DNA of 64,000 bases from Dehalococcoidia bacterium (GTDB taxonomy: Bacteria; Chloroflexota; Dehalococcoidia; GIF9; AB-539-J10), in contig DAOUMA010000020.1 in NCBI GenBank assembly GCA_034414555.1, positions 43,771-107,770 on the forward strand, in the 5' to 3' direction. The position numbers and the translations under genes were made by a program. Below, piece after piece: positions 24,694 through 62,036 of the stretch; the first letter of the stretch is position 1, and each line of letters begins with the position of its first letter. Below the pieces are notes generated by a model. The model ran no database searches. It worked only from the letters and a program-made list of their open reading frames with translations, and had not been told where the DNA came from.

Positions 24694-24954
24694 TTACTCG
24701 TCTTTTATTCCGTGGTCGCGGAGATAGTCAATAGCGTCCTGAACAGTCTTTATATTTTCGGCATCTTCATCGGGTATTTCCAGCCTCATTTCAGTAGTGC
24801 TGAATTCCTCCTCTATAGCGGTAATAAGCTCGATTAAATCCAAGGAGTCGGCATTCAAATCCTCTGCGAAAGAAACTTCCGGGGTTACTTCACTTTCTTC
24901 AACCCCTAATTGCTCTACAATGATTTCCTTTAATTTTTCAAAGATAGTTGCCAT
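24694..24954 (-). CDS. acpP: Acyl carrier protein
   Basis: [12 protein letters not shown] phosphopantetheine site; RBS AAAGGAGG. Confidence 0.95.
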
Positions 24955-25390
24955 TTTCCCTCCTTTGGTCACTAGGATTTGTTTTGCCATATTTAGTGGC
25001 TATTGAGCCTAATACTCCGTTAATCAACCGTGGTGAGGAATCGCTGCCGAAAGTTTTGGCTAACTCTACTGCTTCGTTTATTGCCACCTTAACGGGAGTA
25101 TTATTATCCATTAAAAGTTCGAAGATGGCAATACGCAGAATATTTCTGTCGATGATAGACATTTGCGCCACGGGAAAAGATGGAGCAAAACGCCGAACAA
25201 CATTATCAATCTTTGGTTTATTTTTCAAAACATCTTGCACAAGTTCTCTAGCAAAGTTAATTGCTTCTGGAGGCAATGCCCGCTCTATTGCCAGGTGAGC
25301 CAACACCTCCTCAGCTTTATGTTCAGTACAATCAATTTCATAAAGCGTTTGGAGAGCAGCGATTCTTGCCCTGCGCCTCAAATTGGTCAT
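24938..25390 (-). CDS. nusB: Transcription antitermination factor NusB
   Basis: [41 protein letters not shown]. Confidence 0.96.
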
Positions 25391-25395
25391 GTCAT

Positions 25396-26328
25396 TCAGT
25401 CTGCCTTTAGCTGTGAAATTTCTTCGGTGGTCGATATGTTCCGCGTTCGTAGCTCGGGGTTAATCCGCCTGATTAATCCGCTTAGCACCTTTCCTGGTCC
25501 TATTTCGTAGAATGTGGTTACCTTTTCTTGAGCCATGTATTCCACGGAACGTTGCCATTGAATGCAATGGCAAAGCTGGTTCAGGAGCTCTTCCTTTATC
25601 GCGTCTACGTTATCCAGCGGCTGAGCGGTTACATTTGCTATTATGGGAGCTGTTGGAGGATGAAATGTGGTGTTGGAGACAATCTCCCTGAATTCACCGA
25701 CGGCTGGCTCCATTAGACTGGAGTGGAAAGCTCCGCTAACCCTTAGTGGGGTCTGACGTGCACCCTTCGTCCTGGCTAATTTATTAGCTTTATCCAAATT
25801 CTCTATGCCACCGCTGATTACAATTTGTCCGGGGCAGTTGATATTGGCGATGGTGCATCCACTAAGAAGACATAAATCTTCAACGTCTTCTTTGCTAGCC
25901 CCTAATATTGCTATCATTCCCCCCGGTTTCTTTTGTCCTGCTTGGTGCATCAATCTTCCTCTGTGGTGAACTAGGCGAACGGCATCAGTGATGCTGAGCA
26001 CATTGGCAGCTACTAGAGCGGTATATTCTCCTAGGCTATGTCCGGCAACAAAAATGGGGGAAGGAAGATGATCATTGGCTGTTTCCTGAGCTATCTTAAG
26101 GAAGGCAATACTGGTTATCAATATAGCTGGCTGGACATTGTCTGTTCTGGTTAGTGCATCATCTGGACCTTCAAAACATAACCGAGAAAGGGGGAAGCCT
26201 AAAGCATCGTCGGCTTCCTGAAAAACCTCCCTTGCCAGGGAATAGCTATGATACAAGTCTTGCCCCATACCCACTTTCTGAGAGCCTTGGCCGGGGAAGA
26301 TATAAGCTATCTTGGATAGTTCAGTCAC
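25396..26328 (-). CDS. fabD: Malonyl-CoA:ACP transacylase
   Basis: FPGQGSQ, GHSLGEY, VSGAFHS. Confidence 0.96.
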   Translation of the reverse strand: MTELSKIAYIFPGQGSQKVGMGQDLYHSYSLAREVFQEADDALGFPLSRLCFEGPDDALTRTDNVQPAILITSIAFLKIAQETANDHLPSPIFVAGHSLGEYTALVAANVLSITDAVRLVHHRGRLMHQAGQKKPGGMIAILGASKEDVEDLCLLSGCTIANINCPGQIVISGGIENLDKANKLARTKGARQTPLRVSGAFHSSLMEPAVGEFREIVSNTTFHPPTAPIIANVTAQPLDNVDAIKEELLNQLCHCIQWQRSVEYMAQEKVTTFYEIGPGKVLSGLIRRINPELRTRNISTTEEISQLKAD

Positions 26329-26335
26329 GGGTTAG

Positions 26336-26530
26336 TTACCCTTTTCCTTTAGGTGTTTTGACTTCAATGACTTGTATATCACCATAGCTACCGCAGGTGA
26401 GGCAAACGTGATGAGCTAGCTTTGGGCTGTGACATTGTGGACAAGTGTCCAAGGTTGGCAAAGCTAACTTAATGTGGCTTCGCCGTTTACCACGGCGTGC
26501 TTTGGCATATCTCCTCTTAGGTAGAGCCAT
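26336..26530 (-). CDS. rpmF: 50S ribosomal protein L32 (Zn-binding type)
   Basis: MALPKRR, CPQC...HHVCLTCGSY. Confidence 0.95.
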   Translation of the reverse strand: MALPKRRYAKARRGKRRSHIKLALPTLDTCPQCHSPKLAHHVCLTCGSYGDIQVIEVKTPKGKG

Positions 26531-26990
26531 ATGCTTTCATCTCCTTTATTCCAACACAATCAGGGCGACATAGTGGTTTCATAGGTAAATTTAGCAAGAT
26601 ATATTGTCGTATTAATTCTCCTAAGTCAAGTATATGATTTTTATCAATAGTGAAACCTTCTGATTCTTCGGGCAGGTGGAGTGGCAAACCACTGGATATA
26701 TCAATGGTGGGACGCAATTCCTCTTCAATGACAAAATTTATGGAGTAAGGAAAGCGTTTTAGGCAGCGGCTGCAAACAAGTTCCACCCGGACACTTAATT
26801 TACTACGAACTAAAATCCCTTGACCAGCGTGAATTAGCGTTATCTCACCCTCGATAAAGCCTTCAGGTTGCTTCTCAATTATGGTATTAACATCATAGTT
26901 GCGGCTAGAGCCGGTGGGGTCTTTCAGCAATTGAGCTACATTTATTGCCCCGCTTAACTGGCTTTTGTTGAGGTCTTCAACTTTCATCAT
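26517..26990 (-). CDS. YceD/DUF177 family protein
   Basis: CSRCL, LPMKPLCRPDC; upstream of rpmF. Confidence 0.9.
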   Translation of the reverse strand: MMKVEDLNKSQLSGAINVAQLLKDPTGSSRNYDVNTIIEKQPEGFIEGEITLIHAGQGILVRSKLSVRVELVCSRCLKRFPYSINFVIEEELRPTIDISSGLPLHLPEESEGFTIDKNHILDLGELIRQYILLNLPMKPLCRPDCVGIKEMKAYGST

Positions 26991-27057: not shown

Positions 27058-28227
27058 TTGGAAGAGGAAAAACTAAAGGAAAAATTAAAGGCTGAGTTAG
27101 AAATACGCCGTAGTGAATTAGTGCGGCTAAGCTCAGATATCCATGATAATCCTGAGCTAGGCTTTCAGGAAGTGAAGGCAGTATCCTGGCTTAGCAATTA
27201 CTTAGGGAACAATGGATTTTGTGTTGAAAAGGGCATTGCTGGACTGGCTACGGCTTTTCGAGCAACATATGGTGAGGAGAAGCCAAAAATTGCTGTGCTT
27301 GCTGAATATGATGCCTTGCCGGGAATTGGTCATGGTTGTGGACATAATATCATAGCCGCGTCAGCAGTTGGTGCCGCCGTGACCAGTAAGATTGTTGTAG
27401 ATAATCTCGGAGGAAGCATCATAGTCTTAGGCACTCCTGGTGAGGAAACTTTTGGTAGCAAAATAGATATGATCAAGGCTGGCATTTTCGATGATGTGGA
27501 TGTGGCTATGATGATGCATCCCTCGGTGCTAAACATGGCAATTTATCGGACGCTCGCCTGCATTTCGCTTGAAGTGGAGTTTTTTGGCAAAGCAGCTCAT
27601 GCTGCTATTCATCCTGCCGAGGGTGTGAATGCTCTTGAGGCTGTTATTATCGCATTTAACTCCATAAATTCGCTGCGTCAGCATATAAAAGAACAGGCGC
27701 GCATCCACGGTATAATAACTAATGGTGGTGAGGCACCCAATGTGGTGCCTGCTTACAGCGCTGCTAAGTTCATGATTCGTGCCTCTGATTACGCTTACCT
27801 CGAGGGATTGCAAGGCAAAGTGCTAGACTGTTTTAAAGGTGCCTCTTTAGCCAGCGGCGCCAGATTGAAATATCGCTGGGGGGAGAAAGTTTATGCTCCC
27901 ATAAAGAATAATGTAGCTATGGCTCGGCTATTTAGCGATAATCTTGAATCACTGGGGCGTAAATTGGATATTTTTGATTCTCAAGGTTCTTTTGGTAGTT
28001 CGGATATGGGCAATGTTAGCGAGGTGGTTCCCAGCATACATCCCATGGTCGCTATCGCCTCTCCTCCTGTTTGCTTACATTCAACAGAATTCGCTTCCGC
28101 TGCCGCTTCTGAGGCAGGACACCAGGGATTGTTAGATGCTGCTAAAGCGATGGCGATGACTGTGGTTGATATTGTTGGGCGACCTGGGGTGCTGGAGAAG
28201 ATTAAGCAGGAATTTCGTAGTTTTTAG
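27058..28227 (+). CDS. M20 family amidohydrolase (ACY1L2-like)
   Basis: HDNPELGFQE, EYDALP, HGCGHN, GTPGEE, GSSDMGNVS. Confidence 0.92.
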   Translation: MEEEKLKEKLKAELEIRRSELVRLSSDIHDNPELGFQEVKAVSWLSNYLGNNGFCVEKGIAGLATAFRATYGEEKPKIAVLAEYDALPGIGHGCGHNIIAASAVGAAVTSKIVVDNLGGSIIVLGTPGEETFGSKIDMIKAGIFDDVDVAMMMHPSVLNMAIYRTLACISLEVEFFGKAAHAAIHPAEGVNALEAVIIAFNSINSLRQHIKEQARIHGIITNGGEAPNVVPAYSAAKFMIRASDYAYLEGLQGKVLDCFKGASLASGARLKYRWGEKVYAPIKNNVAMARLFSDNLESLGRKLDIFDSQGSFGSSDMGNVSEVVPSIHPMVAIASPPVCLHSTEFASAAASEAGHQGLLDAAKAMAMTVVDIVGRPGVLEKIKQEFRSF

Positions 28228-28230
28228 GCA

Positions 28231-29187
28231 ATGGTTACAGTAGGGATTCCGCGGGCTTTGCTTTATTACCAGTATTATCCTGCATGGAAGGTCTTCTTAG
28301 AGAAGCTGGGTGCGAAAGTAGTGGTATCAGCACCAACCAACAAAAGTATATTAAACTCAGGCGTTGCACGGGGTGTTCAGGATACTTGCTTGCCGGTAAA
28401 GGTCTTTTTTGGACATATCGTTTCATTGGTTAATGAATGTGACGTAATGTTTGTCCCTGCTGTTACCAGTTTAGGCAAGAAGAGTTATAATTGCTCCAAG
28501 CTTATCGGTTTGCCCAATATGGCAAGGGCTCTAATTCCAGAAAGCCCTCCCATTCTTGCCCCAGAGATAAATTGTGAAAAAGGTCGTTACAATTTGTACC
28601 GAAGTATCTATGGGGTGGGACGCTACTTTACCTCTAATCCATTTAAGCTTAAGAGAGCGGTGGAGGAAGCTTGGGCAAGCAATTTAGATTACCAGCGCAA
28701 AATGTCGGATGAAGGAATTACTCCTCTCCAGGCTATTGATTGCCAGCTGTCTCCTGATGTTAATCCTTCTTCATTTACCATCGCAGTTATCGGGCATCCC
28801 TATATTAGCTATGATGAATATATTAGTCATCGGCTTATTTCACAACTACAAAAGAAGGGAGTCAAAGTTGTTACCCCGGAGATGGTATCTCCGGAAGAGC
28901 TTGATGCTGCTACAAGAAGACTGGTGGGAGTTCCTCATTGGTTATTTGAATCCGAAATAATCGGCGCCGGAGAATATTACATGGAAACAGGGGTGGATGG
29001 TATAATTATTGTAGTTGCTTTCGGATGTGGTCCTGATTCGATGATGTTAGGCATGGTGCAGCATCGAGCAAGGGAGTTAAGCGTTCCTATTTTACCACTT
29101 AGTTTGGATGAGCATAGTAGCGAAGGGGGTTTGCTTACTCGATTAGAGGCCTTTTTAGATATGGTCAAGCGGAGGGAAAGAATATGA
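28231..29187 (+). CDS. DUF2229/acyl-CoA dehydratase-activase-related subunit (PlsA C-terminal-like)
   Basis: VGIPRALLYY, DTCLPVKVFFGH, NCSKLIGLP, AFGCGPD, LDEHSSEGGLLTRLEAF. Confidence 0.8.
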   Translation: MVTVGIPRALLYYQYYPAWKVFLEKLGAKVVVSAPTNKSILNSGVARGVQDTCLPVKVFFGHIVSLVNECDVMFVPAVTSLGKKSYNCSKLIGLPNMARALIPESPPILAPEINCEKGRYNLYRSIYGVGRYFTSNPFKLKRAVEEAWASNLDYQRKMSDEGITPLQAIDCQLSPDVNPSSFTIAVIGHPYISYDEYISHRLISQLQKKGVKVVTPEMVSPEELDAATRRLVGVPHWLFESEIIGAGEYYMETGVDGIIIVVAFGCGPDSMMLGMVQHRARELSVPILPLSLDEHSSEGGLLTRLEAFLDMVKRRERI

Positions 29188-30287
29188 GTGTAGGCTTTCC
29201 TCATTTCGGCAATGTTTATATCCCGATAAAAGCTATGGCAAGGAGACTGGGGGCTCCTGATGGTAAGGTAATAATTCCACCGCCGATAACACAACGCACA
29301 TTGGACCTCGGTGTTAAGTACTCACCGCAGGAAGCTTGCTTGCCGTATAAGCTCACCTTGGGTAGCTTGATTGAGGCTTGTGAGCTAGGTGCCGATACTC
29401 TGATTCAGGCAAGAGGGACTGGAATTTGCCGCTTAGGTTATTATGCTAAGGGTCAAGAGCAAATGCTGCAAGATCTGGGTTATAATGCTCATTTCCTCAC
29501 TTTGGATGTCTCTCACAACAAGTTTATAAGCATTATTCGACTTATACAGGGTATGAGCGATAATACCCCTTGGCGTGAAATTATCTCGGCATTTTTTTTC
29601 AGCATCGGTAAATTATCTGCGTTGGATAGAGTAGAGAAGGTGGTTCAGAGAGTACAGGCAGTGGAGGTTGAAAAAGGAACAGCTAGCCGGATTTACCGGG
29701 AGGCTGTCAATGCCGTTGATGAAGCAACCGACAGTAAGGAAATCAAGAAAATAACTAAAGAGTATATCCATAAATTAACACAGGTGCCCAAAGACACTAC
29801 TGCTAAGCCACTCAAAGTAGGCATTGTCGGGGAGATTTACGTGGTTATCGAGCCTTTCGCTAATATGGATATAGAAGTGGAATTGGGCAAGTTAGGAATA
29901 GAGGTAGAGCGAACCCTGACTCTTTCCCGATGGGTTAAATATAGTCTGTTTCTTAACTATCTTGGGGTAGATGAATGGAAGGAGGTTCATAAATTGGCTG
30001 GTCCTTATGTCGACCATGATATTGGTGGTGATGGTTGGGAATCGGTAGGGGAGAAGGTGCTCTATGATCACGAAGGGTTTGATGGTGTAATCCATTTAGC
30101 CCCTTTTACCTGTATGCCAGAGATAGTAGCTGAGAATATTATGTCATCGACAAAGGAGGATATACCCGTACTGGCTATTACTTGCGATGAACAGCAGAGT
30201 AAGCAGGGGATGTTGACCCGACTTGAGGCTTTCGTAGACTTAATAGGCTTTAGAAGGCGGAGAAAGGAGCATGGGAGAAGAGTTTAA
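29184..30287 (+). CDS. 2-hydroxyacyl-CoA dehydratase D-like subunit (PlsR-like)
   Basis: SPQEACLPYK, GICRLGYY, GIVGEIY, PFTCMPEIV, DEQ...TRLEAFVD. Confidence 0.8.
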   Translation: MSVGFPHFGNVYIPIKAMARRLGAPDGKVIIPPPITQRTLDLGVKYSPQEACLPYKLTLGSLIEACELGADTLIQARGTGICRLGYYAKGQEQMLQDLGYNAHFLTLDVSHNKFISIIRLIQGMSDNTPWREIISAFFFSIGKLSALDRVEKVVQRVQAVEVEKGTASRIYREAVNAVDEATDSKEIKKITKEYIHKLTQVPKDTTAKPLKVGIVGEIYVVIEPFANMDIEVELGKLGIEVERTLTLSRWVKYSLFLNYLGVDEWKEVHKLAGPYVDHDIGGDGWESVGEKVLYDHEGFDGVIHLAPFTCMPEIVAENIMSSTKEDIPVLAITCDEQQSKQGMLTRLEAFVDLIGFRRRRKEHGRRV

Positions 30288-30480
30288 AAATCTGAACAAG
30301 CTTGTCAAAAGTAAGCAGATGATAGTATTCTTTATTGTTATGAGCATCGGTTCGATTTTGTTTTACCCTATTTTAAAATTAAAGCAAAGAAAAGCGCTGG
30401 AATTGCAGGAAGACATAAAAGCCTCTAATCGGGGCAAATTTAGGAAGTTTGGTGGGACTTCTCTTGGGAAGTTAGAGTAG
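30271..30480 (+). CDS. Small single-TM hypothetical protein inside the activase operon
   Basis: 69 aa, hydrophobic segment MIVFFIVMSIGSILFYPIL; overlaps the upstream gene by 17 nt and ends 2 nt before the next ATG. Confidence 0.4.
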   Translation: MGEEFKNLNKLVKSKQMIVFFIVMSIGSILFYPILKLKQRKALELQEDIKASNRGKFRKFGGTSLGKLE

Positions 30481-30482
30481 AT

Positions 30483-31454
30483 ATGAAGGCTTATCTTGGC
30501 ATTGATGTTGGCTCGGTCACTACGAAATTAGCTTTGCTTGGTGAGGATGACCAGCTTATAGCCTCTACTTATCTGCGAACTCGGGGTAACCCGGTAAACA
30601 TGGTGAAACAGGGGCTGAGGGAAATAAAGAAGCAAATGTCGCGTGAAGTCGAAATTAGTGGGGTAGCCACTACTGGAAGTGGTCGTTATCTGGCTAGTGT
30701 GCTTGTTGGTGCTGATTTGGTGAAGAATGAGATTACCACTCATGCTGTTGCTGCCATGCAACATATACCTGATGTGCAAACAATTTTTGAAATAGGTGGC
30801 CAGGATAGCAAAATTATTGTAATCCGTGATGGTGTGGTCATTGATTTTGGTATGAATTCAGTATGTGCTGCTGGAACGGGAAGCTTCTTGGAGCATCAAG
30901 CGGAGCGTTTGAATGTAAGGATTGAGGATTTTGGAGAGCATGCTTTAAGGAGTGAGAATCCAGCGCGTATCGCTGGGAGGTGTACTGTTTTTGCTGAATC
31001 AGATATGATTCATAAACAGCAACTAGGATATCCTCTCGATGACATTATTTACGGTTTATGTCAATCCTTAGTGCGCAATTATCTTAATAATGTTGCTCTG
31101 GGCAAGGAAATTCAGCCCAGATTAGTATTTCAGGGTGGTGTTGCTTTCAATAAAGGGATAATCAGGGCATTTAATGAGGCTTTCGACTCTGGAGTTTACG
31201 TCCCACCCCACAATGAACTTATGGGTGCTATAGGGGCTGCCATTCTGGTGCACGAGGAAATGGAAATTAAGCAGGATCATCATAAGAGTAATTTTAAGGG
31301 ATTTGGTATCAGTGACATAGAATTCAAGACCTCTTCTTTCATATGTAAAGCTTGCCCGAATTTATGTGAAATCTCTCAAATTTCTGCTGATAGTAAAGTT
31401 TTAGCCCGGTGGGGAGGGCGTTGTGATATGTGGGAGAGGGTTCCAGAGAGCTAG
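30483..31454 (+). CDS. Acyl-CoA dehydratase activase (BadF/BadG/BcrA/BcrD ATPase, 4Fe-4S)
   Basis: GIDVGSVTTK, TTGSGR, EIGGQDSK, MNSVCAAGTG, RCTVFAES, C-terminal CKACPNLC...GGRC. Confidence 0.92.
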   Translation: MKAYLGIDVGSVTTKLALLGEDDQLIASTYLRTRGNPVNMVKQGLREIKKQMSREVEISGVATTGSGRYLASVLVGADLVKNEITTHAVAAMQHIPDVQTIFEIGGQDSKIIVIRDGVVIDFGMNSVCAAGTGSFLEHQAERLNVRIEDFGEHALRSENPARIAGRCTVFAESDMIHKQQLGYPLDDIIYGLCQSLVRNYLNNVALGKEIQPRLVFQGGVAFNKGIIRAFNEAFDSGVYVPPHNELMGAIGAAILVHEEMEIKQDHHKSNFKGFGISDIEFKTSSFICKACPNLCEISQISADSKVLARWGGRCDMWERVPES

Positions 31455-31466
31455 TCTCCTTTGTGT

Positions 31467-32387
31467 ATGGCTAGAAAATATCAATTGATCATCGTTGGTG
31501 GTGGTCCTGCAGGGCTTACTGCGGGACTTTATAGTGCTAGAGGGGGACTCAAGGTATTGCTCATCGAAAAGGAGGTAATTGGTGGGCAAATTGCCAATGC
31601 TGACCGTGTAGAAAACTATCCTGGCTTCCCGGAAGGTATTTCTGGATTTGAGTTGGCGCGGCTTATCCATCAACAAGCTACGAATCATGGATTGGAAACT
31701 ATGTCTGGTGAAGTTACTGGATTAAAATCCCGTTATGGTAGCAACATAGTCAACACCGCTGAGGGTGATTTTATAGCTCAAGCGGTGATAATCGCTGGAG
31801 GGTTGCAATTTCGTAAATTAGAAGTGCCTGGTGAAGGTGAATTCCTAGGTAAAGGAGTTTCTTATTGTGCTACTTGTGACGGTCCATTATTTCGAGATAA
31901 AGCAGTGGCGGTAGTTGGAGGTGGAGATACTGCTGTTACTGATGCTCTTTCTCTGAGCAAGTTTGCTTCTTCGGTGAAGGTTATCCATCGCCGTAATCAG
32001 TTGCGAGCGAGCAGGGTATTACAGAGAAGAGCGCAAACTGAGCCCAAAATAGAATTTATATGGGATAGTGTGGTAACTGATGTGAAAGGAAAGGAAAAGC
32101 TCACTGATTTAGTGCTTAAAAATACCAAAAATGGTACAATATCATTGGTAGCTGTAGATGGTGTCTTTGTCGCCATCGGGTTAGTTCCTAATACTAAATA
32201 TCTGCGGGGAGTTTTGCCTCTCGATGAAGGGGGATACGTAATTACTACCGAGCTGATGGAGACAACAGTGCCTGGTATATTTGCGGCAGGTGATATTCGT
32301 CATAACTCAGTGAAGCAGGCAATAGTTGCTGCTGGAAATGGTGCTGTTGCGGCGTTATCAGCGGAGTGGTTCATCGATTCGCTATGA
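31467..32387 (+). CDS. trxB: Thioredoxin reductase
   Basis: [28 protein letters not shown]. Confidence 0.96.
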
Positions 32388-32836
32388 AAGTTATTTTTTT
32401 GGCGGACATTCCTTCGAAGGGGAAGGCAGGGGAGATAAAGTCGGTAAGTGATGGATATGCACGAAACTTCCTTTTCCCCAGGGGGTTGGCCCAGGTAGCA
32501 ACACCTGAGGTGGTAAAACAGGCTGAGATCAGTCTGCGGAAGAAAGTGACTGAAGAAAGCTTAGACAAGGAAAAGATGGTCAAGTTGGCTGAGCAAATTG
32601 AAGGAATTCAAATTTGCCTCAAGGCCCATGCCGGCGCTGAAGACCGTCTTTTCGGTTCTATCACTGAAGCTAATATTGCTGAAGAACTAAGCAAAGTTGT
32701 GGATGCTCCTATTGATAAGAGGCAAGTAGTTTTGGATAATCCATTGCGCCAGATAGGTGAATATGAGGTTACTATCAAACTGGCTAGAGATTTGGAGTCG
32801 CGAATCAAGGTAATTGTCGAGCCGGGGGAAGCTTAA
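32384..32836 (+). CDS. rplI: 50S ribosomal protein L9
   Basis: [23 protein letters not shown]. Confidence 0.96.
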
Positions 32837-32837
32837 A

Positions 32838-34223
32838 ATGATAGCAGAAAAATTACCACCTCATGATATTGAGGCAGAAGAAGCGGTAATCGGTTCCTTG
32901 ATTGTTGACCCTGATGCTATATTTAAGATAGTGACGTTCCTTGCTCCCGAAGACTTTTTTGACGAAACCCACAGGGTAATTTATCAAGCTTGTTTATCCC
33001 TTCACCAACGCAACGAAGTTATAAACCAGATTACAGTAGCGCATGAGTTAATGCGACAAAACAGGTTGGAACAGATTGGTGGAGCTGCTTATTTGAGCCA
33101 TTTGATATCCATTACACCTACACCGCTCTATGTTGAGCATTATGCTCGGATAATATCCAATGCCGCGGCAATGAGGCGATTAATTGTTGCTGCGGGACAG
33201 ATTGCTGCTATTGGATATGAAGCAGGGGCTGACGTTGAGTCCACTCTAAACAAAGCTGTGGACATTCTCTTTCAAGTAGGGAGTAAAGGGGTCCCAACAA
33301 ATTTGGTTCTGATTCGTGATCTCCTGAGCAAGTATTTTGAAGAAGTGGGGCAAACCTCATTAGGGGAAAAGCAAATACCTCGTATTTTAACTGGCTTTAT
33401 TGGGTTAGATGAGTTATTGGGTGGATTACAAAGGTCAGATTTAATCATTTTGGCAGCAAGACCAGCGGTGGGGAAAACGAGTTTAGCCCTGAATGTCGCT
33501 AGGAATGCTGCTATTGAGCAGAAAGCCTGTGTTGCCCTTTTTAGTCTAGAGATGTCTCGGGATACAATTGTTCAGCGTCTGTTGTCCTCCGAAGCGAAGG
33601 TGGATTCCAAGGATGTTCGTTTGGGACATTTTACTGAAAGGGAGGAGAGACGGATTATGGACGCCAGTGGAGTTTTATCAGAGGCGCCAATTTATATTGA
33701 TGATGCCCCTCAGCAGCGTGTTATGGATATAGGAAGTAAGGCGAAACGTCTTCATCGTGAGCATGGCATTGACCTGATTGTTATTGATTATCTGCAATTG
33801 ATACAGGGTGATGGCAGGAATGTGCCCCGAGTTCAGGAAATGAGCAATATAACTCGTTCAATAAAGGGGTTGGCTAGGGAATTGAATGTGCCGGTGCTTG
33901 CAGTATCTCAACTTAGCCGTGCTGTGGAATGGCGTGCCTCTCACAAACCTCAGCTCTCTGACCTGCGGGAGAGCGGTAGTATTGAGCAAGATGCTGATGT
34001 TGTATTCTTTATCCATAGAGAGTCTATGTATTGTGAGGAAGATGAATGGAACAGGACACACGATGTGGAGAAGGAGCCCTATCCTAGAAATGAGGCTGAT
34101 ATTATTGTTGAAAAGCATCGAAATGGTCCGCTGGGTATGGTGAAATTGCGTTTTCTTCCGTGGTTCTCTCGATTTGATAATGTAGAAGTAGTGCCAGCCC
34201 CTAGTTCTGAGGAGTTAATATAA
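32838..34223 (+). CDS. dnaB: Replicative DNA helicase
   Basis: PPHDIEAE, AARPAVGKT, FSLEM, IDYLQL, SQLSR, LRESGSIEQDAD; no intein. Confidence 0.97.
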   Translation: MIAEKLPPHDIEAEEAVIGSLIVDPDAIFKIVTFLAPEDFFDETHRVIYQACLSLHQRNEVINQITVAHELMRQNRLEQIGGAAYLSHLISITPTPLYVEHYARIISNAAAMRRLIVAAGQIAAIGYEAGADVESTLNKAVDILFQVGSKGVPTNLVLIRDLLSKYFEEVGQTSLGEKQIPRILTGFIGLDELLGGLQRSDLIILAARPAVGKTSLALNVARNAAIEQKACVALFSLEMSRDTIVQRLLSSEAKVDSKDVRLGHFTEREERRIMDASGVLSEAPIYIDDAPQQRVMDIGSKAKRLHREHGIDLIVIDYLQLIQGDGRNVPRVQEMSNITRSIKGLARELNVPVLAVSQLSRAVEWRASHKPQLSDLRESGSIEQDADVVFFIHRESMYCEEDEWNRTHDVEKEPYPRNEADIIVEKHRNGPLGMVKLRFLPWFSRFDNVEVVPAPSSEELI

Positions 34224-34224
34224 C

Positions 34225-34875
34225 GTGACAAATAAAAACTTGCCTGCTTTTCTGAGAGATGAGGATTTTGTCCTTTTACCTGAATCATTTTTTACTCAAG
34301 CAATACCTGAAATAGAGGATATAGCCGAGCTCAAGGTGGTTCTTTGCTTTTTCTATTTACTCCATCGTAAGCAGGGGTATCATGAGTTTATCACCCATGG
34401 GGAATTGCTATCCTATTGTGTTCCTGTTATCGGGGAACCGGGGTTCTACAGTGGTTTAAGAGCGGCTATAAAGGGGGAGGTTATTTTATCACTTAGTAAG
34501 GATATTAATGGAAGGCAGGAAGATGTTTACTTCGCTAACAAGGAGGCTCTAGATAGGGCGAGCCGCGGGATAATTCCTAAACAGGCAGCACAACCACTCA
34601 ATATCTTTACTCTTTATGAGCAGAATATAGGTTTGATAACGCCACTGGTGGCTGAAGAGCTTAAAGAAGCGGCGAAAGTTTATCCAGCACAGTGGATAGA
34701 GGAAGCTTTTAAAGAAGCGGTTAACATGAATAAGCGTAGTTGGAAATACATCTCTCGTATCCTTGAGAGATGGGCTAGCGAGGGTAAAGATAGTGGAGAG
34801 TATAGACAAGGTATTAAAAAGAGCGATGCCAATAAATACATTAAGGGCAGATACGGGCACCTCGTCAAAAGATAA
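34225..34875 (+). CDS. DnaD domain protein
   Basis: NIFTLYEQNIG, WIEEAFKEAV, WKYISRILERW. Confidence 0.88.
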   Translation: MTNKNLPAFLRDEDFVLLPESFFTQAIPEIEDIAELKVVLCFFYLLHRKQGYHEFITHGELLSYCVPVIGEPGFYSGLRAAIKGEVILSLSKDINGRQEDVYFANKEALDRASRGIIPKQAAQPLNIFTLYEQNIGLITPLVAEELKEAAKVYPAQWIEEAFKEAVNMNKRSWKYISRILERWASEGKDSGEYRQGIKKSDANKYIKGRYGHLVKR

Positions 34876-35629
34876 CCAAGATAGTAAGGAAGTTTGTCCT
34901 ATTTGCAAAGGGGCTGGGCTTGTTCATCCTCTTCTAGCCTCGGGGCAACCTGATTTCAGCAATGTGGTTCCCTGTCAGTGTAAGAAGGAGGAGCTGGAGG
35001 AGAAGAAACTGCAGTATCTCCAAAAATATAGTAATCTTGGCTCATTATTGCAGATGATGACCTTCGATAATTTTGACTATAAGCGGATGAACCTCTCTCT
35101 GGAGCAACGTCAAAATCTGCGAAAAGCCTTTGATGTAGCAAAGGACTTTGCACATTCTCCAGAGGGTTGGTTGGTATTTCAAGGTGTCAATGGCTGTGGC
35201 AAAACTCATTTAGCAGCAGCTATTGCTAATCATCGATTAAAACAAGGCAAGCCAGTCTTATTCATAGTGGTTCCTGACCTCCTTGACCATCTGCGCTCTA
35301 CCTTCAACCCGGAGAGCAAAATATCATATGATGATGTTTTTGAAACGATAAAGCAGTCTCCTTTGCTAATACTCGATGACTTTGGCGAGCAATCTGCTAC
35401 TCCTTGGGCTCAGGAAAAGCTATACCAATTAATTAATCACCGGTACAATGCCAGGTCACCGATGGTGGTTACCACTTGTCTTTCCCTGGATGAGATTGAG
35501 ACCAGAATCAGCTCACGAATGGGAGATCCCAAATTAAGTTTAGTGTTCAATATCACTGCCCCTGATTATCGTAGTGACATAAAACCTATTCAGTCCGCCG
35601 AACGCTCCTCGCGAAAACGCTATTCCTAA
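34826..35629 (+). CDS. DnaC/DnaI-like helicase loader ATPase (IstB-like AAA+); start uncertain
   Basis: CPICKG...PCQC Zn motif, GVNGCGKTHLA, LILDDFG; follows dnaB-dnaD. Confidence 0.85.
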   Translation: MPINTLRADTGTSSKDNQDSKEVCPICKGAGLVHPLLASGQPDFSNVVPCQCKKEELEEKKLQYLQKYSNLGSLLQMMTFDNFDYKRMNLSLEQRQNLRKAFDVAKDFAHSPEGWLVFQGVNGCGKTHLAAAIANHRLKQGKPVLFIVVPDLLDHLRSTFNPESKISYDDVFETIKQSPLLILDDFGEQSATPWAQEKLYQLINHRYNARSPMVVTTCLSLDEIETRISSRMGDPKLSLVFNITAPDYRSDIKPIQSAERSSRKRYS

Positions 35630-35682
35630 AAAACATTTTATTGCAATAAGCGCATATCGTTGTTAAAATAAGGCAACGTTAT

Positions 35683-36201
35683 ATGCCAGATTCAGAAGTA
35701 GTAAATTTGCCGGTTCTGGTTCTTAATCAGAGCTATGAGCCATTGAATTTATGTCGTGTACGCCGAGCTATAATCTTGACTGTTTATGGTAAAGCGGAAG
35801 TCTTGGAAAACAGCAGGGGAGAAATTCATTCCGCAAGGCAGGTTTTTCAGGTACCCTCGGTGATACGTCTTGCTTATTTCGTTAAACGCCCTTATCACGA
35901 AAGAAAATTAACCAAGGTCGAGGTATTCATCCGTGATGAATATACTTGCCAGTATTGTGGTAAACAAACCAGGGAGCTTACGTTAGACCATGTAATTCCA
36001 CGGCAGCATGGTGGAGGGCATATTTGGGAGAATGTGGTTAGTGCTTGTAAGGGCTGCAACCGCCGTAAAGGTGGGCGCACGCCTGAAGAGGCAGGGATGA
36101 AATTGCTACGCCCTCCACGCACCCCTCGCCACGACGGCTTCTATATTCCCTATCATTACCTTAATAGCCATAGTGAGTGGCAAAAGTATATTCCTGAATA
36201 A
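35683..36201 (+). CDS. HNH endonuclease (McrA-like, chromosomal type)
   Basis: VLVLNQSYEPL, RDEYTCQYCG, TLDHVIP, NVVSACKGCNRRKG; promoter TTGCAA-17-TAAAAT upstream. Confidence 0.92.
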   Translation: MPDSEVVNLPVLVLNQSYEPLNLCRVRRAIILTVYGKAEVLENSRGEIHSARQVFQVPSVIRLAYFVKRPYHERKLTKVEVFIRDEYTCQYCGKQTRELTLDHVIPRQHGGGHIWENVVSACKGCNRRKGGRTPEEAGMKLLRPPRTPRHDGFYIPYHYLNSHSEWQKYIPE

Positions 36202-59838: not shown

Positions 59839-60864
59839 ATGGAAGAAATTAAGCACATAAAGTTTTTGAACAGAATTATATGTGGCAATAATTTGGAACT
59901 GCTTGGGGATATTCCAGATAAAAGTATAAATTTGGTTATAACATCTCCACCCTATTACAAACAGCGGGATTATGGTGAGGGAATAGGGAATGAGAGAACC
60001 GTCGAAGAGTATATCGAAAATTTGTGCAAAGTCTTCCATGAATGTGTTAGAGTAGTCAAAGATGATGGCAGTATTGTATTCAACATCGGGGATAAATATG
60101 AAAACGCAAATCTTTTGTTAGCACCGTATAGATTTGCTATCGAAGTCTTAGAAAAAGAGCCCGTAAAGCTTGCAAATAACATCACTTGGGTTAAACTAAA
60201 CCCCACCCCTAGACAATTCAAAAGAAGACTTGTGAGTAGCACGGAGCCTTTTTTCCATTTTGTTAAGTCCGATAGTTACTATTACAACATAAATGAGTTT
60301 ATGAGCCGTTTAGCTATTATAGAGCGGAAAAACAATAAAAGTAGTAATAACATAGGTAAAACATATGTCGAACTGATAGAAAGCTCCTCACTATCAGAGG
60401 AACAAAAAAATATGGCAAAAGAAGAACTATTAGAGGTAATTCAAGAAGTTAAAACGGGTAAAATAGATAGTTTTCGTATGAAAATAAGAGGCATCCATTC
60501 CTCACCTTTTGGAGGACAAGACGGAGGCAGGAAAATTCAGTTAATGAAGAAGGGTTTTACTATAATAAGAATACACGGAGATGCCCTAAAGCGTGATGTG
60601 ATTGAGTGTCCAGTAGAGACAATAAAAGGCTGTAAGCATCCAGCGATATACCCTGAGTATATAATTCAGGAATTACTTAAACTACTTACGCGGAAAGGTG
60701 ATGTAGTTTTAGACCCCTTCATGGGCTCTGGAACTACGGCTGTAGCCTGTAAGAAGTTATGCCGGAACTACATAGGATTTGAAATCAACGCGGATTATTG
60801 TAAGTATGCCGAAGAAAGAATAAAAAACATTGAATATCAACCGTCTATAGAGGGACTTTCATGA
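59839..60864 (+). CDS. DNA methyltransferase, beta-class N4-cytosine type
   Basis: Catalytic TSPPY precedes the SAM motif LDPFMGSGTT; HPAIYP. Confidence 0.92.
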   Translation: MEEIKHIKFLNRIICGNNLELLGDIPDKSINLVITSPPYYKQRDYGEGIGNERTVEEYIENLCKVFHECVRVVKDDGSIVFNIGDKYENANLLLAPYRFAIEVLEKEPVKLANNITWVKLNPTPRQFKRRLVSSTEPFFHFVKSDSYYYNINEFMSRLAIIERKNNKSSNNIGKTYVELIESSSLSEEQKNMAKEELLEVIQEVKTGKIDSFRMKIRGIHSSPFGGQDGGRKIQLMKKGFTIIRIHGDALKRDVIECPVETIKGCKHPAIYPEYIIQELLKLLTRKGDVVLDPFMGSGTTAVACKKLCRNYIGFEINADYCKYAEERIKNIEYQPSIEGLS

Positions 60865-62036
60865 AAGAAACCAAAGATCCTACTCAAATACTTGAACATA
60901 CTTACAGACAAGCTACTGAGGAAATTACAAAAGACGATGGTAAATCTTTTCTGAATACACTCAACAGGGAACAAAAAGAATGGCTGATTACAATAGCAGA
61001 CAAATGCGAATCGCTTAAGGCGGTAGTTACAACACTCGCAACAAGTCTAACAAAGAAAATAGAAAGCCCTAAGCAAGATGTAAGATGCCACAAGATTGGA
61101 CTGGAAGGTGGTTATTCAGGAAGAACATTTGATACCAATTATATAACACCGTTTTTCAAAAGGAAATTTCGAAGATTATCTATGAAGGAAAGTGGCTGGC
61201 TAACTAGGTCTATTGAACAAGCACACGCCTTTACTCTTGACTTCCCAGGTAAGATTAGAGACAAAAATGTAAAACAATCTTTTTTACAAATTCTGAATGA
61301 TATTGAAGAAAATAAAGCCGACCCACAGAAATATCTGGTAGGTTTGCTCATACTTCTAATACAACAAACTGCTATAACTCAAACAAAATTTACCCATGCT
61401 ATTTCTAGAGAAACGGTAACTATTGAATCAATAATAAAATGCTTAAAATCACACTTTTTCGGAGGATACAGTGTTTGGGGTGCGTCCCGGCTACCAGTCG
61501 TAGCAATATACTCAATATACCAAATATTAATGAATGATGTTACACGATACCAAGGTAAGAAGCTTCAACCAATAAGAAGCCATTTAGCTCCAGATGTGCG
61601 TTCAAGAGCTATTGGAGATATAGAAGTAACTGGTGGCAACGGCGAATACTTTGAAGCTGTTGAAATCAAACATAACATACCTATCAATTCTGCAATAATC
61701 GAGGACGCATACCAGAAATTCAAGGACACCCCTATCACACGCTATTACTTGTTAACGACGGCAGAACCCGATACTGAAAGTGGAGAAGAGGAACAGGTTA
61801 GAGCTCTAATAGCGAAAATTAGAAAAGAACATGGGTGTGAGATAATAGTTAATGGAATAATACCATCGTTAAAGTATTATCTGAGGCTATTACCAAATCC
61901 TGTGAATTTTATAGAAAGATACACAGATAATTTAGGGGTAGAGTTCTCTAAAACTACAGAGATTAAAGAGCAACATCTAGCAGAGTGGGGAGGAATTATC
62001 AAAGAACTAACTAAAAACGCAATTTCAACGGAGTAA
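60861..62036 (+). CDS. Putative type II restriction endonuclease (PD-(D/E)xK)
   Basis: 4-nt overlap with the MTase gene, AT-rich, GDIEV...EAVEIKH motif. Confidence 0.75.
   Translation: MKETKDPTQILEHTYRQATEEITKDDGKSFLNTLNREQKEWLITIADKCESLKAVVTTLATSLTKKIESPKQDVRCHKIGLEGGYSGRTFDTNYITPFFKRKFRRLSMKESGWLTRSIEQAHAFTLDFPGKIRDKNVKQSFLQILNDIEENKADPQKYLVGLLILLIQQTAITQTKFTHAISRETVTIESIIKCLKSHFFGGYSVWGASRLPVVAIYSIYQILMNDVTRYQGKKLQPIRSHLAPDVRSRAIGDIEVTGGNGEYFEAVEIKHNIPINSAIIEDAYQKFKDTPITRYYLLTTAEPDTESGEEEQVRALIAKIRKEHGCEIIVNGIIPSLKYYLRLLPNPVNFIERYTDNLGVEFSKTTEIKEQHLAEWGGIIKELTKNAISTE

Follow-up and report, generated by a model that had tools for sequence, protein, structure and literature searches.

The closest described relatives of the proteins considered here are PlsA/PlsR, the plasmalogen-forming enzyme of Clostridium perfringens, and Ger, the alkyl ether-forming enzyme of Thermotoga maritima. 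Ger and PlsA each consist of two activase domains, followed by DUF2229 and then by further reductase/dehydratase segments (PMC13159169); these modules have been labeled Act1-Act2-Red1-Red2 (PMC12838417), and according to the literature Ger cannot be told from PlsA by sequence (PMC13274423). Additional PlsA homologues without the activation domain are held by Bacillota genomes, and their role has been called unclear (PMC13274423, published in 2026). In this study we analyzed a cassette in which Red1, Red2 and the activase are encoded by separate genes, at positions 28231-31454 of a 64,000-nucleotide stretch of Dehalococcoidia DNA (GenBank assembly GCA_034414555.1, contig DAOUMA010000020.1; the whole stretch is referred to as the window). 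The genome from which the window comes (contig 20) measures 1.51 Mb and has a completeness of 99.5%. From the sequences and the structural models, we propose that the cassette, complete and intact, specifies an enzyme of three components that belongs to the ATP-driven [4Fe-4S] radical superfamily (BCR/HAD type, that of benzoyl-CoA reductases and 2-hydroxyacyl-CoA dehydratases), within the DUF2229 branch. By analogy with characterized members, this enzyme class and the general mechanism that goes with it, ATP-driven electron injection into a Cys3-ligated carbonyl-binding cluster, are well supported; the specific reaction that we propose, reduction of glycerolipid esters to ethers or vinyl ethers, has in our estimate about an even chance of being correct.

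A three-component cassette with conserved putative cluster ligands

Four overlapping genes on the plus strand make up the cassette and encode Red1, Red2, a 69-amino-acid membrane protein and the activase. The preliminary description of this DNA, made from the sequence alone, had recognized a DUF2229-like subunit, a dehydratase-D-like subunit and a single-domain activase in one string, with conserved Cys motifs, and the open reading frames (ORFs), their Pfam and NCBIfam domains and the conservation of the cluster cysteines bear this out. Red1 (28231-29187 (+), 318 aa) matches DUF2229 (PF09989) along the full length of the profile (positions 1-218 of 218; E = 4.7e-51, 173.9 bits), and its match to HGD-D (PF06050) is confined to residues 250-311, some 60 residues at the C-terminal end (29.9 bits). 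Red2 (29184-30287 (+), 367 aa), a PlsR-like catalytic subunit, matches DUF2229 less strongly (8e-11) and HGD-D at a score under the cut-off, and is a diverged paralogue of Red1. Each of the two subunits has three invariant cysteines, which are putative [4Fe-4S] ligands: C53, C88 and C266 of Red1 are 100% conserved across 91 split and 15 fused sequences, and C52, C82 and C310 of Red2 are 100% conserved in the split and fused families. The AF2 models of Red1 and Red2 have predicted local distance difference test (pLDDT) scores of 86.4 and 81.6, respectively, and the best Foldseek matches of the two models in the Protein Data Bank (PDB) were DCCP (7yzm and 6eno), HadBC (3o3m), BzdNO (8s02), MbdON and 9g87, with a probability of 1.0; Red1 matched DCCP, HadBC and BzdNO best, and Red2 gave HadBC and DCCP fold matches. 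The models thus predict a fold of the HadBC/DCCP/BzdNO kind for both subunits. A sequence search of the PDB returned insignificant matches, and neither subunit had an NCBIfam equivalog match to Bcr or Bzd subunits.

The activase (30483-31454 (+), 323 aa) is ATP-dependent and of the HgdC/BcrAD type, an ASKHA ATPase, with matches to PF01869 (2.3e-46) and TIGR00241 (196.6 bits against a cut-off of 125.4). Its Cys128 and Cys167, of the type that holds a bridging cluster, do not vary across 56 split and 30 fused activase domains (100% conservation). A C-terminal tail with four cysteines (C288-x2-C291-x3-C295...C314) is likewise present in 100% of split activases and in 93% of Act2 domains, and is absent from Act1. 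The cassette is the sole DUF2229 locus and holds the sole activase and the sole HGD-D match of the whole genome; with no second gene of any of these kinds, the activase has exactly one client.

Between Red2 and the activase lies the 69-aa ORF (30271-30480 (+)), which the preliminary description had overlooked and which has one strongly hydrophobic helix (MIVFFIVMSIGSILFYPIL). It is present in frame at the same place in 7 of 10 loci from relatives of the same order, at 48-72% identity, with conservation of the hydrophobic helix (Kyte-Doolittle maximum 2.41) and of an ELQESIK...FGGTSL motif. The ORF has no Pfam or NCBIfam match and is absent from Bacillota cassettes. Judging from these features, it is probably a small membrane subunit or anchor.

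Correspondence with the modules of fused enzymes

For comparison we assembled a fused set consisting of the Dehalococcoidia fused homologues, the single-gene Pls of Listeria monocytogenes, for which plasmalogen production is reported (PMC9702350), a PlsA+PlsR-type pair from Fusobacterium, and homologues from Collinsella, Haliovirga, Acetoanaerobium, Halonatronum, Thermoanaerobacterium and Pelotomaculum. Listeria, Fusobacterium, Collinsella and further sequences came from records mislabeled as 'plasmid'; the comparisons and trees were made with this set and without the sequences of C. perfringens PlsA/PlsR and T. maritima Ger. Hidden Markov models (HMMs) of the split proteins mapped Red1 onto the fused Red1 region and Red2 onto the fused Red2/PlsR region, including the corresponding portion of Listeria Pls (3.5e-15) and PlsR of Fusobacterium (5.4e-9). 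Similarly, the HMM of the split activase, tail included, mapped onto Act2 of the fused proteins in preference to Act1. Furthermore, 27 of the 42 split Red1 positions that are at least 90% conserved are common to the fused clade, among them C53, C88, C266, K57, H62, Y191, D195, W237, D293, E294 and R304, and the same holds for Red2. Each of the three proteins thus has its counterpart among the fused modules, the activase in Act2, Red1 in Red1 and Red2 in Red2 (PlsR), and the HMM mapping, the shared Red1 positions and the Act2-only four-Cys tail together indicate that the catalytic architecture is the same. The BBD architecture, in which two tandem activases are fused N-terminally to Red1, was not found in the window, where there is one separate activase of 323 aa.

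We then asked how the split and fused forms are related, using Red1 and Red2 trees that root each other; all trees but one careful run were quick searches. The split family contained 2728 clusters at 50% identity (E<=1e-3), the best 150 of which were all of the split type or Red1-Red2 fusions, and the closest protein relatives of the window cassette come from Dehalococcoidia/Chloroflexota metagenome bins. Red2 sequences formed one clade relative to Red1 (support 100), and fused Red1 and fused Red2 were each monophyletic (100 and 99 in one tree, 100/100 in the careful tree), and neither of the two clades took in a split sequence. The Dehalococcoidia-type subgroup of the window adjoined the fused clade in three tree runs (support 81, 81 and 88/87), and in the careful tree it was the split group nearest to that clade (88/87). 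A tree constrained to hold all split sequences as one clade was 3.6 log-likelihood units worse, with a p-value of 0.418 in the approximately unbiased (AU) test, so that neither topology was rejected. A first AU test had favored strict monophyly of the split family, but this result reflected a poor quick search and the claim was not retained; in the careful tree the fused clade is nested next to the window subgroup. On these sequences we treat the split family as either sister to the PlsA/Ger clade or paraphyletic at its stem, and the window cassette, so placed, is not a broken-up PlsA. The earlier portrayal of the locus as a three-way split PlsA homologue is thus right as to module-for-module homology and wrong as to origin, the cassette belonging to a separate family outside the fused clade (100/100).

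Gene neighborhoods

The cassette is part of a plus-strand string (27058-34223) in which genes overlap slightly or are separated by gaps of at most 6 nt. The first gene of the string encodes an M20 amidohydrolase (27058-28227 (+); Pfam and NCBIfam matches, TIGR01891 subfamily, 209 bits) whose stop lies 3 nt ahead of Red1. Downstream, trxB (31461-32387 (+); TIGR01292, 364.9 bits) starts 6 nt past the activase and is followed in the same gapless string by rplI and dnaB, a continuation that had also been missed. A divergent cluster, yceD-rpmF-fabD-nusB-acpP (24694-26990 (-); Pfam matches), lies on the other side; this cluster and the leading position of the M20 gene had been reported from the sequence, and the coordinates and Pfam matches agree. 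Promoter and terminator scans gave counts not above those of shuffled sequence.

In ten loci from relatives of the same order, all three of Red1, Red2 and the activase are retained, with identities of 55-91%. M20 is directly upstream of Red1 in seven of these (in one more the locus is cut by the contig end) and nearby in six distant Dehalococcoidia loci; trxB follows the cassette in six of the ten, and yceD-rpmF-fabD-nusB-acpP adjoins it in eight. The fabD-acpP adjacency was found in 0 of 21 loci from other Dehalococcoidia families, and the statement that the cassette stands next to a fatty-acid operon accordingly holds within the window's own order and not beyond it. In those other families, plsX (TIGR00182, 333.9 bits) is encoded directly after the activase and on the same strand in 9 of the 21 loci; these nine represent at least eight GTDB families, and in all nine plsX overlaps or abuts the activase gene. 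Of the three-gene loci among the 21, 12 have a visible downstream side, and the nine are among these. Beside fused genes, two-gene-type cassettes or Bacillota cassettes plsX was not found. The tie to fatty-acid and phospholipid genes outlasts the other neighbors across families. Among the new arguments that the substrate is a lipid we rank it first, with the reservation that related genomes are not independent samples.

The window's own genome has plsX and fabF elsewhere, in two separate plsX...fabF loci (G000:C2:13810-16590 and G000:C18:49037-54545), so that ester phospholipid substrates are available. Two such loci are an unusual duplication for so small a genome (1.5 Mb). Thioredoxin and TrxB follow plsX in four to five distant Dehalococcoidia loci. 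TrxB is thus a recurrent neighbor, and its membership of the system is uncertain; a role as ferredoxin reductase for the activase was rejected in view of the CATC motif (at residue 136 of the protein) of a true thioredoxin reductase.

Radical SAM proteins are found upstream at a few loci. In four loci of other families, a gene for a radical SAM/SPASM protein of about 520 aa stands directly upstream of Red1 (L137:6373-7938 (+), and L136, L138 and L147), often preceded by a gene for a 200-aa protein without a family match and by M20. When compared with solved structures, this protein did not match the archaeal tetraether synthase significantly in sequence and had generic radical SAM matches only. 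Locus L140 instead has upstream a B12-binding radical SAM protein (best NCBIfam match HpnJ-like, also 'lipid biosynthesis B12/rSAM') and a methyltransferase. The radical SAM neighbors of these five loci are candidates for lipid-tail modification.

The Red1-Red2-activase order is also kept in Bacillota. There, the commonest genes upstream are spoIIAA/AB-sigF and spoVAC-AD-AE(-AF), with a GerA-like SpoVAF, and those downstream are lysA, trpS, scpAB and an M50 protease gene, all on the same strand as the cassette (loci L040-L119). The position between spoVA and lysA/trpS suggests, as far as gene order can, expression in the forespore; a literature search returned no paper linking spoVA and split activase cassettes.

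Distribution of split and fused forms

Among 41 close relatives from the window's order, almost every genome that has one of the two forms, split or fused, lacks the other. In one of these genomes (G030), split Red1, Red2 and activase are all fragmented by stops (L020:3844-6818 (-)), and an intact fused homologue of 1413 aa is present. This near-exclusion, together with the decayed split copy, hints at redundancy. At the level of the class, 301 Dehalococcoidia genomes included 33 with the split clade, about 81 with the fused form and 14 with both; both forms occurred in 3 of the 21 genomes with the three-gene type as against 11 of the 12 with the activase plus Red1-Red2 type. Twenty Bacillota genomes, reached through named loci, comprised 9 with the split form only and 11 with both, most of them carrying two split cassettes. 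A complementary distribution, which we had considered as proof of equivalence, was therefore abandoned: it is good in the 41 relatives and fails in the class (14 of 33) and in Bacillota (11 of 20). In Alkaliphilus peptidifermentans (G330:C32:25183-25833), a fused PlsA/Ger-type gene has one in-frame TAG, either a possible pseudogene or a possible recoded codon.

Lipid phenotypes of species with split cassettes

Published lipid data provide one supporting case and one ambiguous case, with different strains behind the genomes and the lipid analyses. Moorella thermoacetica contains several plasmalogen-derived dimethyl acetals (DMAs) and a C31 dialkyl glycerol ether (DGE) (PMC13274423, Table S1), and in our scan the genomes of M. 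thermoacetica and Neomoorella carbonis each gave two split cassettes but neither a fused gene nor a double activase. The looser Bacillota screen of the same study scored Moorella as 'Ger yes' (PMC13274423); because our scan of the genome found no fused gene, this score can only refer to split components. The proposed link to lipids thereby gains independent support from two sides, the nine loci with plsX after the activase and the genotype and lipids of Moorella.

The ambiguous case is Caldanaerobacter subterraneus. One of its cassettes (L087) has no adjacent activase, and in the second (L121:7192-8289 (-)) an in-frame TGA cuts Red2 into pieces of 166 and 195 aa, with Red1 and the activase intact. 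A link of split cassettes to N-glyceroyl alkylamine lipids by way of Thermus was tried and dropped, as the lone Thermus DUF2229 match, which lies below the family cut-off, is gone at E 1e-20 and no Thermus activase was found. A literature search returned nothing usable on DMAs in other split-only species or on Dehalococcoidia ether lipids. Published Ger screens demand at least 30% query coverage (PMC13159169); we infer that with a Ger query of about 1400 aa this threshold would by length alone exclude split subunits of 318-367 aa.

A proposed mechanism and its alternatives

Taking HadBC/HgdC and PlsA/Ger chemistry as guides, we infer the cofactors, complex, substrate and product of the split enzyme as follows. 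A homodimer of the single activase would hold a bridging [4Fe-4S] cluster on Cys128 and Cys167, to be reduced by ferredoxin or flavodoxin, and ATP hydrolysis would drive one low-potential electron from it into a Red1/Red2 heterodimer. Each Red subunit would carry a [4Fe-4S] cluster on its three invariant cysteines, with one iron left free for the substrate carbonyl. The four-Cys tail of the activase may be the equivalent of the element between Act2 and Red1 of fused enzymes and is probably a metal site or docking element, and the 69-aa protein could keep the complex at the membrane. As substrate, the acyl ester carbonyl of a glycerolipid or of a close precursor is the most likely. A ketyl radical would form and water would be lost to give a 1-alk-1'-enyl (plasmalogen) lipid or, with further reduction, a 1-alkyl ether lipid, in the manner of PlsA/PlsR and Ger.

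Several observations weigh against ester-to-ether reduction as the function of the cassette. Identity to fused Red1 is just 23-34% (23-27% to Red1 of Listeria and Fusobacterium), and the fused clade (Listeria, Fusobacterium, Collinsella and others; 100/100) contains no split sequence. Synteny among related genomes is not independent evidence, and in Bacillota the cassettes follow spoVA genes and precede lysA and do not stand beside lipid genes. The co-occurrence of split and fused forms in 14 of 33 split-bearing Dehalococcoidia and 11 of 20 Bacillota, most of the latter with two split paralogues, points to non-redundant and possibly different functions; since the two forms coexist in so many genomes, function cannot simply be transferred from one to the other. 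The Moorella link is that of one species, in which the genome strain differs from the strain used for lipid analysis, and C. subterraneus, which has split cassettes only, has no DMA or glycerol ether listed (PMC13274423). Finally, residue 158 of Red2 in the window is Gln (CAG, 29655-29657), a position at which 97% of split and 91% of fused Red2 sequences have Arg. The same Gln occurs in a 99%-identical variant and is therefore not a sequencing error; a relative with 95% identity has Arg.

The cassette could alternatively be an ATP-driven radical reductase or dehydratase of a non-lipid substrate, its lipid-gene neighbors being inherited synteny devoid of functional significance, which we consider unlikely, if well worth keeping in view. 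A peptide- or thiol-linked metabolite would fit the recurrence of M20 and of thioredoxin and TrxB beside Dehalococcoidia cassettes, and a spore-specific compound would fit the linkage to spoVA and lysA in Bacillota. Such a function would also be in keeping with the several paralogous cassettes per genome alongside fused PlsA/Ger, with a role called unclear in the literature (PMC13274423), and with the top fold match, DCCP, which reduces small molecules. However, the only characterized DUF2229 enzymes act on lipids, the plsX link is kept over at least eight families while the other neighbors change, the cassette includes a membrane micro-ORF, and Moorella makes ether lipids without a fused enzyme.

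It is also conceivable, and in our view a shade less probable than a non-lipid substrate, that the same machinery acts on a lipid precursor (acyl-phosphate, acyl-ACP or lysophosphatidate, alongside PlsX) or yields another lipid product, that is, fatty aldehydes, fatty alcohols or alkylamine-type lipids and not ethers from mature diacyl phospholipids. Chemistry of this sort has no precedent in the family; the overlap or abutment of plsX and the activase gene in nine loci speaks in its favor. As for a different product, split-only Caldanaerobacter is rich in 1-OH fatty alcohols, wax esters and N-glyceryl alkylamines and lacks DMA (PMC13274423); against this, ordinary acyl reductases are the normal source of fatty alcohols, the alkylamine link by way of Thermus failed, and split-only Moorella has both DMA and DGE. 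An ordinary 2-hydroxyacyl-CoA dehydratase or benzoyl-CoA reductase with soluble CoA thioesters as substrates, which would have the fold and activase common to HadBC/HadI and BzdNO, is highly improbable, in that HGD-D covers the last 60 or so residues of Red1 only whereas DUF2229 is matched in full, there are no Bcr/Bzd equivalog matches, PDB sequence matches are insignificant, and no fermentation or aromatic-degradation genes lie nearby.

A bolder reading can be put forward as a long shot. The Dehalococcoidia split enzyme might work with PlsX and form the ether or vinyl-ether bond while phospholipids are being made de novo, at the acyl-phosphate/lysophosphatidate level and not on finished membrane lipids; the split family would then be the older and more widespread bacterial ether-lipid machinery, and these abundant sediment bacteria would be a major unnoticed source of ether lipids of the non-isoprenoid kind. 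Where the non-isoprenoid ether lipids and plasmalogens of anoxic sediments come from is a question that organic geochemistry has yet to answer, and producers are now inferred by screens for full-length PlsA/Ger genes. If the split form does make such lipids, many producer lineages would be added (33 of 301 sampled Dehalococcoidia, acetogens such as Moorella, syntrophs and spore-formers), and coverage-based gene screens would need revision. The split family is, moreover, a compact and separable version of a 1400-residue enzyme without a solved structure, and as such attractive for biochemistry and cryo-electron microscopy. If its function differs, it would be among the largest uncharacterized branches of the ATP-driven radical enzyme superfamily.

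Other features of the window

Downstream of dnaB (34225-36201) are genes for a DnaD-domain protein (PF07261), an IstB/DnaC-like AAA+ loader and an HNH endonuclease. At 60001-62000 the G+C content is 0.37, as against about 0.45 elsewhere, with a strong positive AT skew.

Comparison with known systems

PlsA/PlsR has a two-gene form in C. perfringens and single-gene forms in Listeria, Enterococcus, Lactococcus and Bifidobacterium. Like these, the window system combines an activase, a DUF2229 Red1 and a paralogous Red2, with the same three cysteines per Red subunit and the four-Cys element that follows Act2, and the enzyme would be expected to be oxygen-sensitive and to depend on ATP and electrons. 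Unlike these, it has one free-standing activase, all of its parts are separate, and there is an extra 69-aa membrane ORF. Ger (Tmari_0479 of T. maritima, and that of Desulfatibacillum alkenivorans), which was compared by description only, has the PlsA-type BBD architecture, and the fused homologues in Dehalococcoidia have the same BBD-type architecture as Ger. DCCP/DCCP-R and HadBC/HadI, the best structural matches to Red1 and Red2 (TM about 0.5-0.6), likewise work with an ATP-dependent activase partner; they differ in having 12-17% identity, in belonging to the HGD-D family and not to DUF2229, and in acting on soluble substrates. The window proteins are themselves members of the split family, which carries the NCBI names 'acyl-CoA dehydratase activase-related protein' and 'CoA protein activase', and they share with it the Red1-Red2-activase order that is conserved in Chloroflexota, Bacillota, Atribacterota and others. 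The Dehalococcoidia subgroup is set apart from the rest of that family by its neighbors, fabD/acpP or plsX, M20, thioredoxin/TrxB and the 69-aa ORF, where Bacillota cassettes have spoVA.

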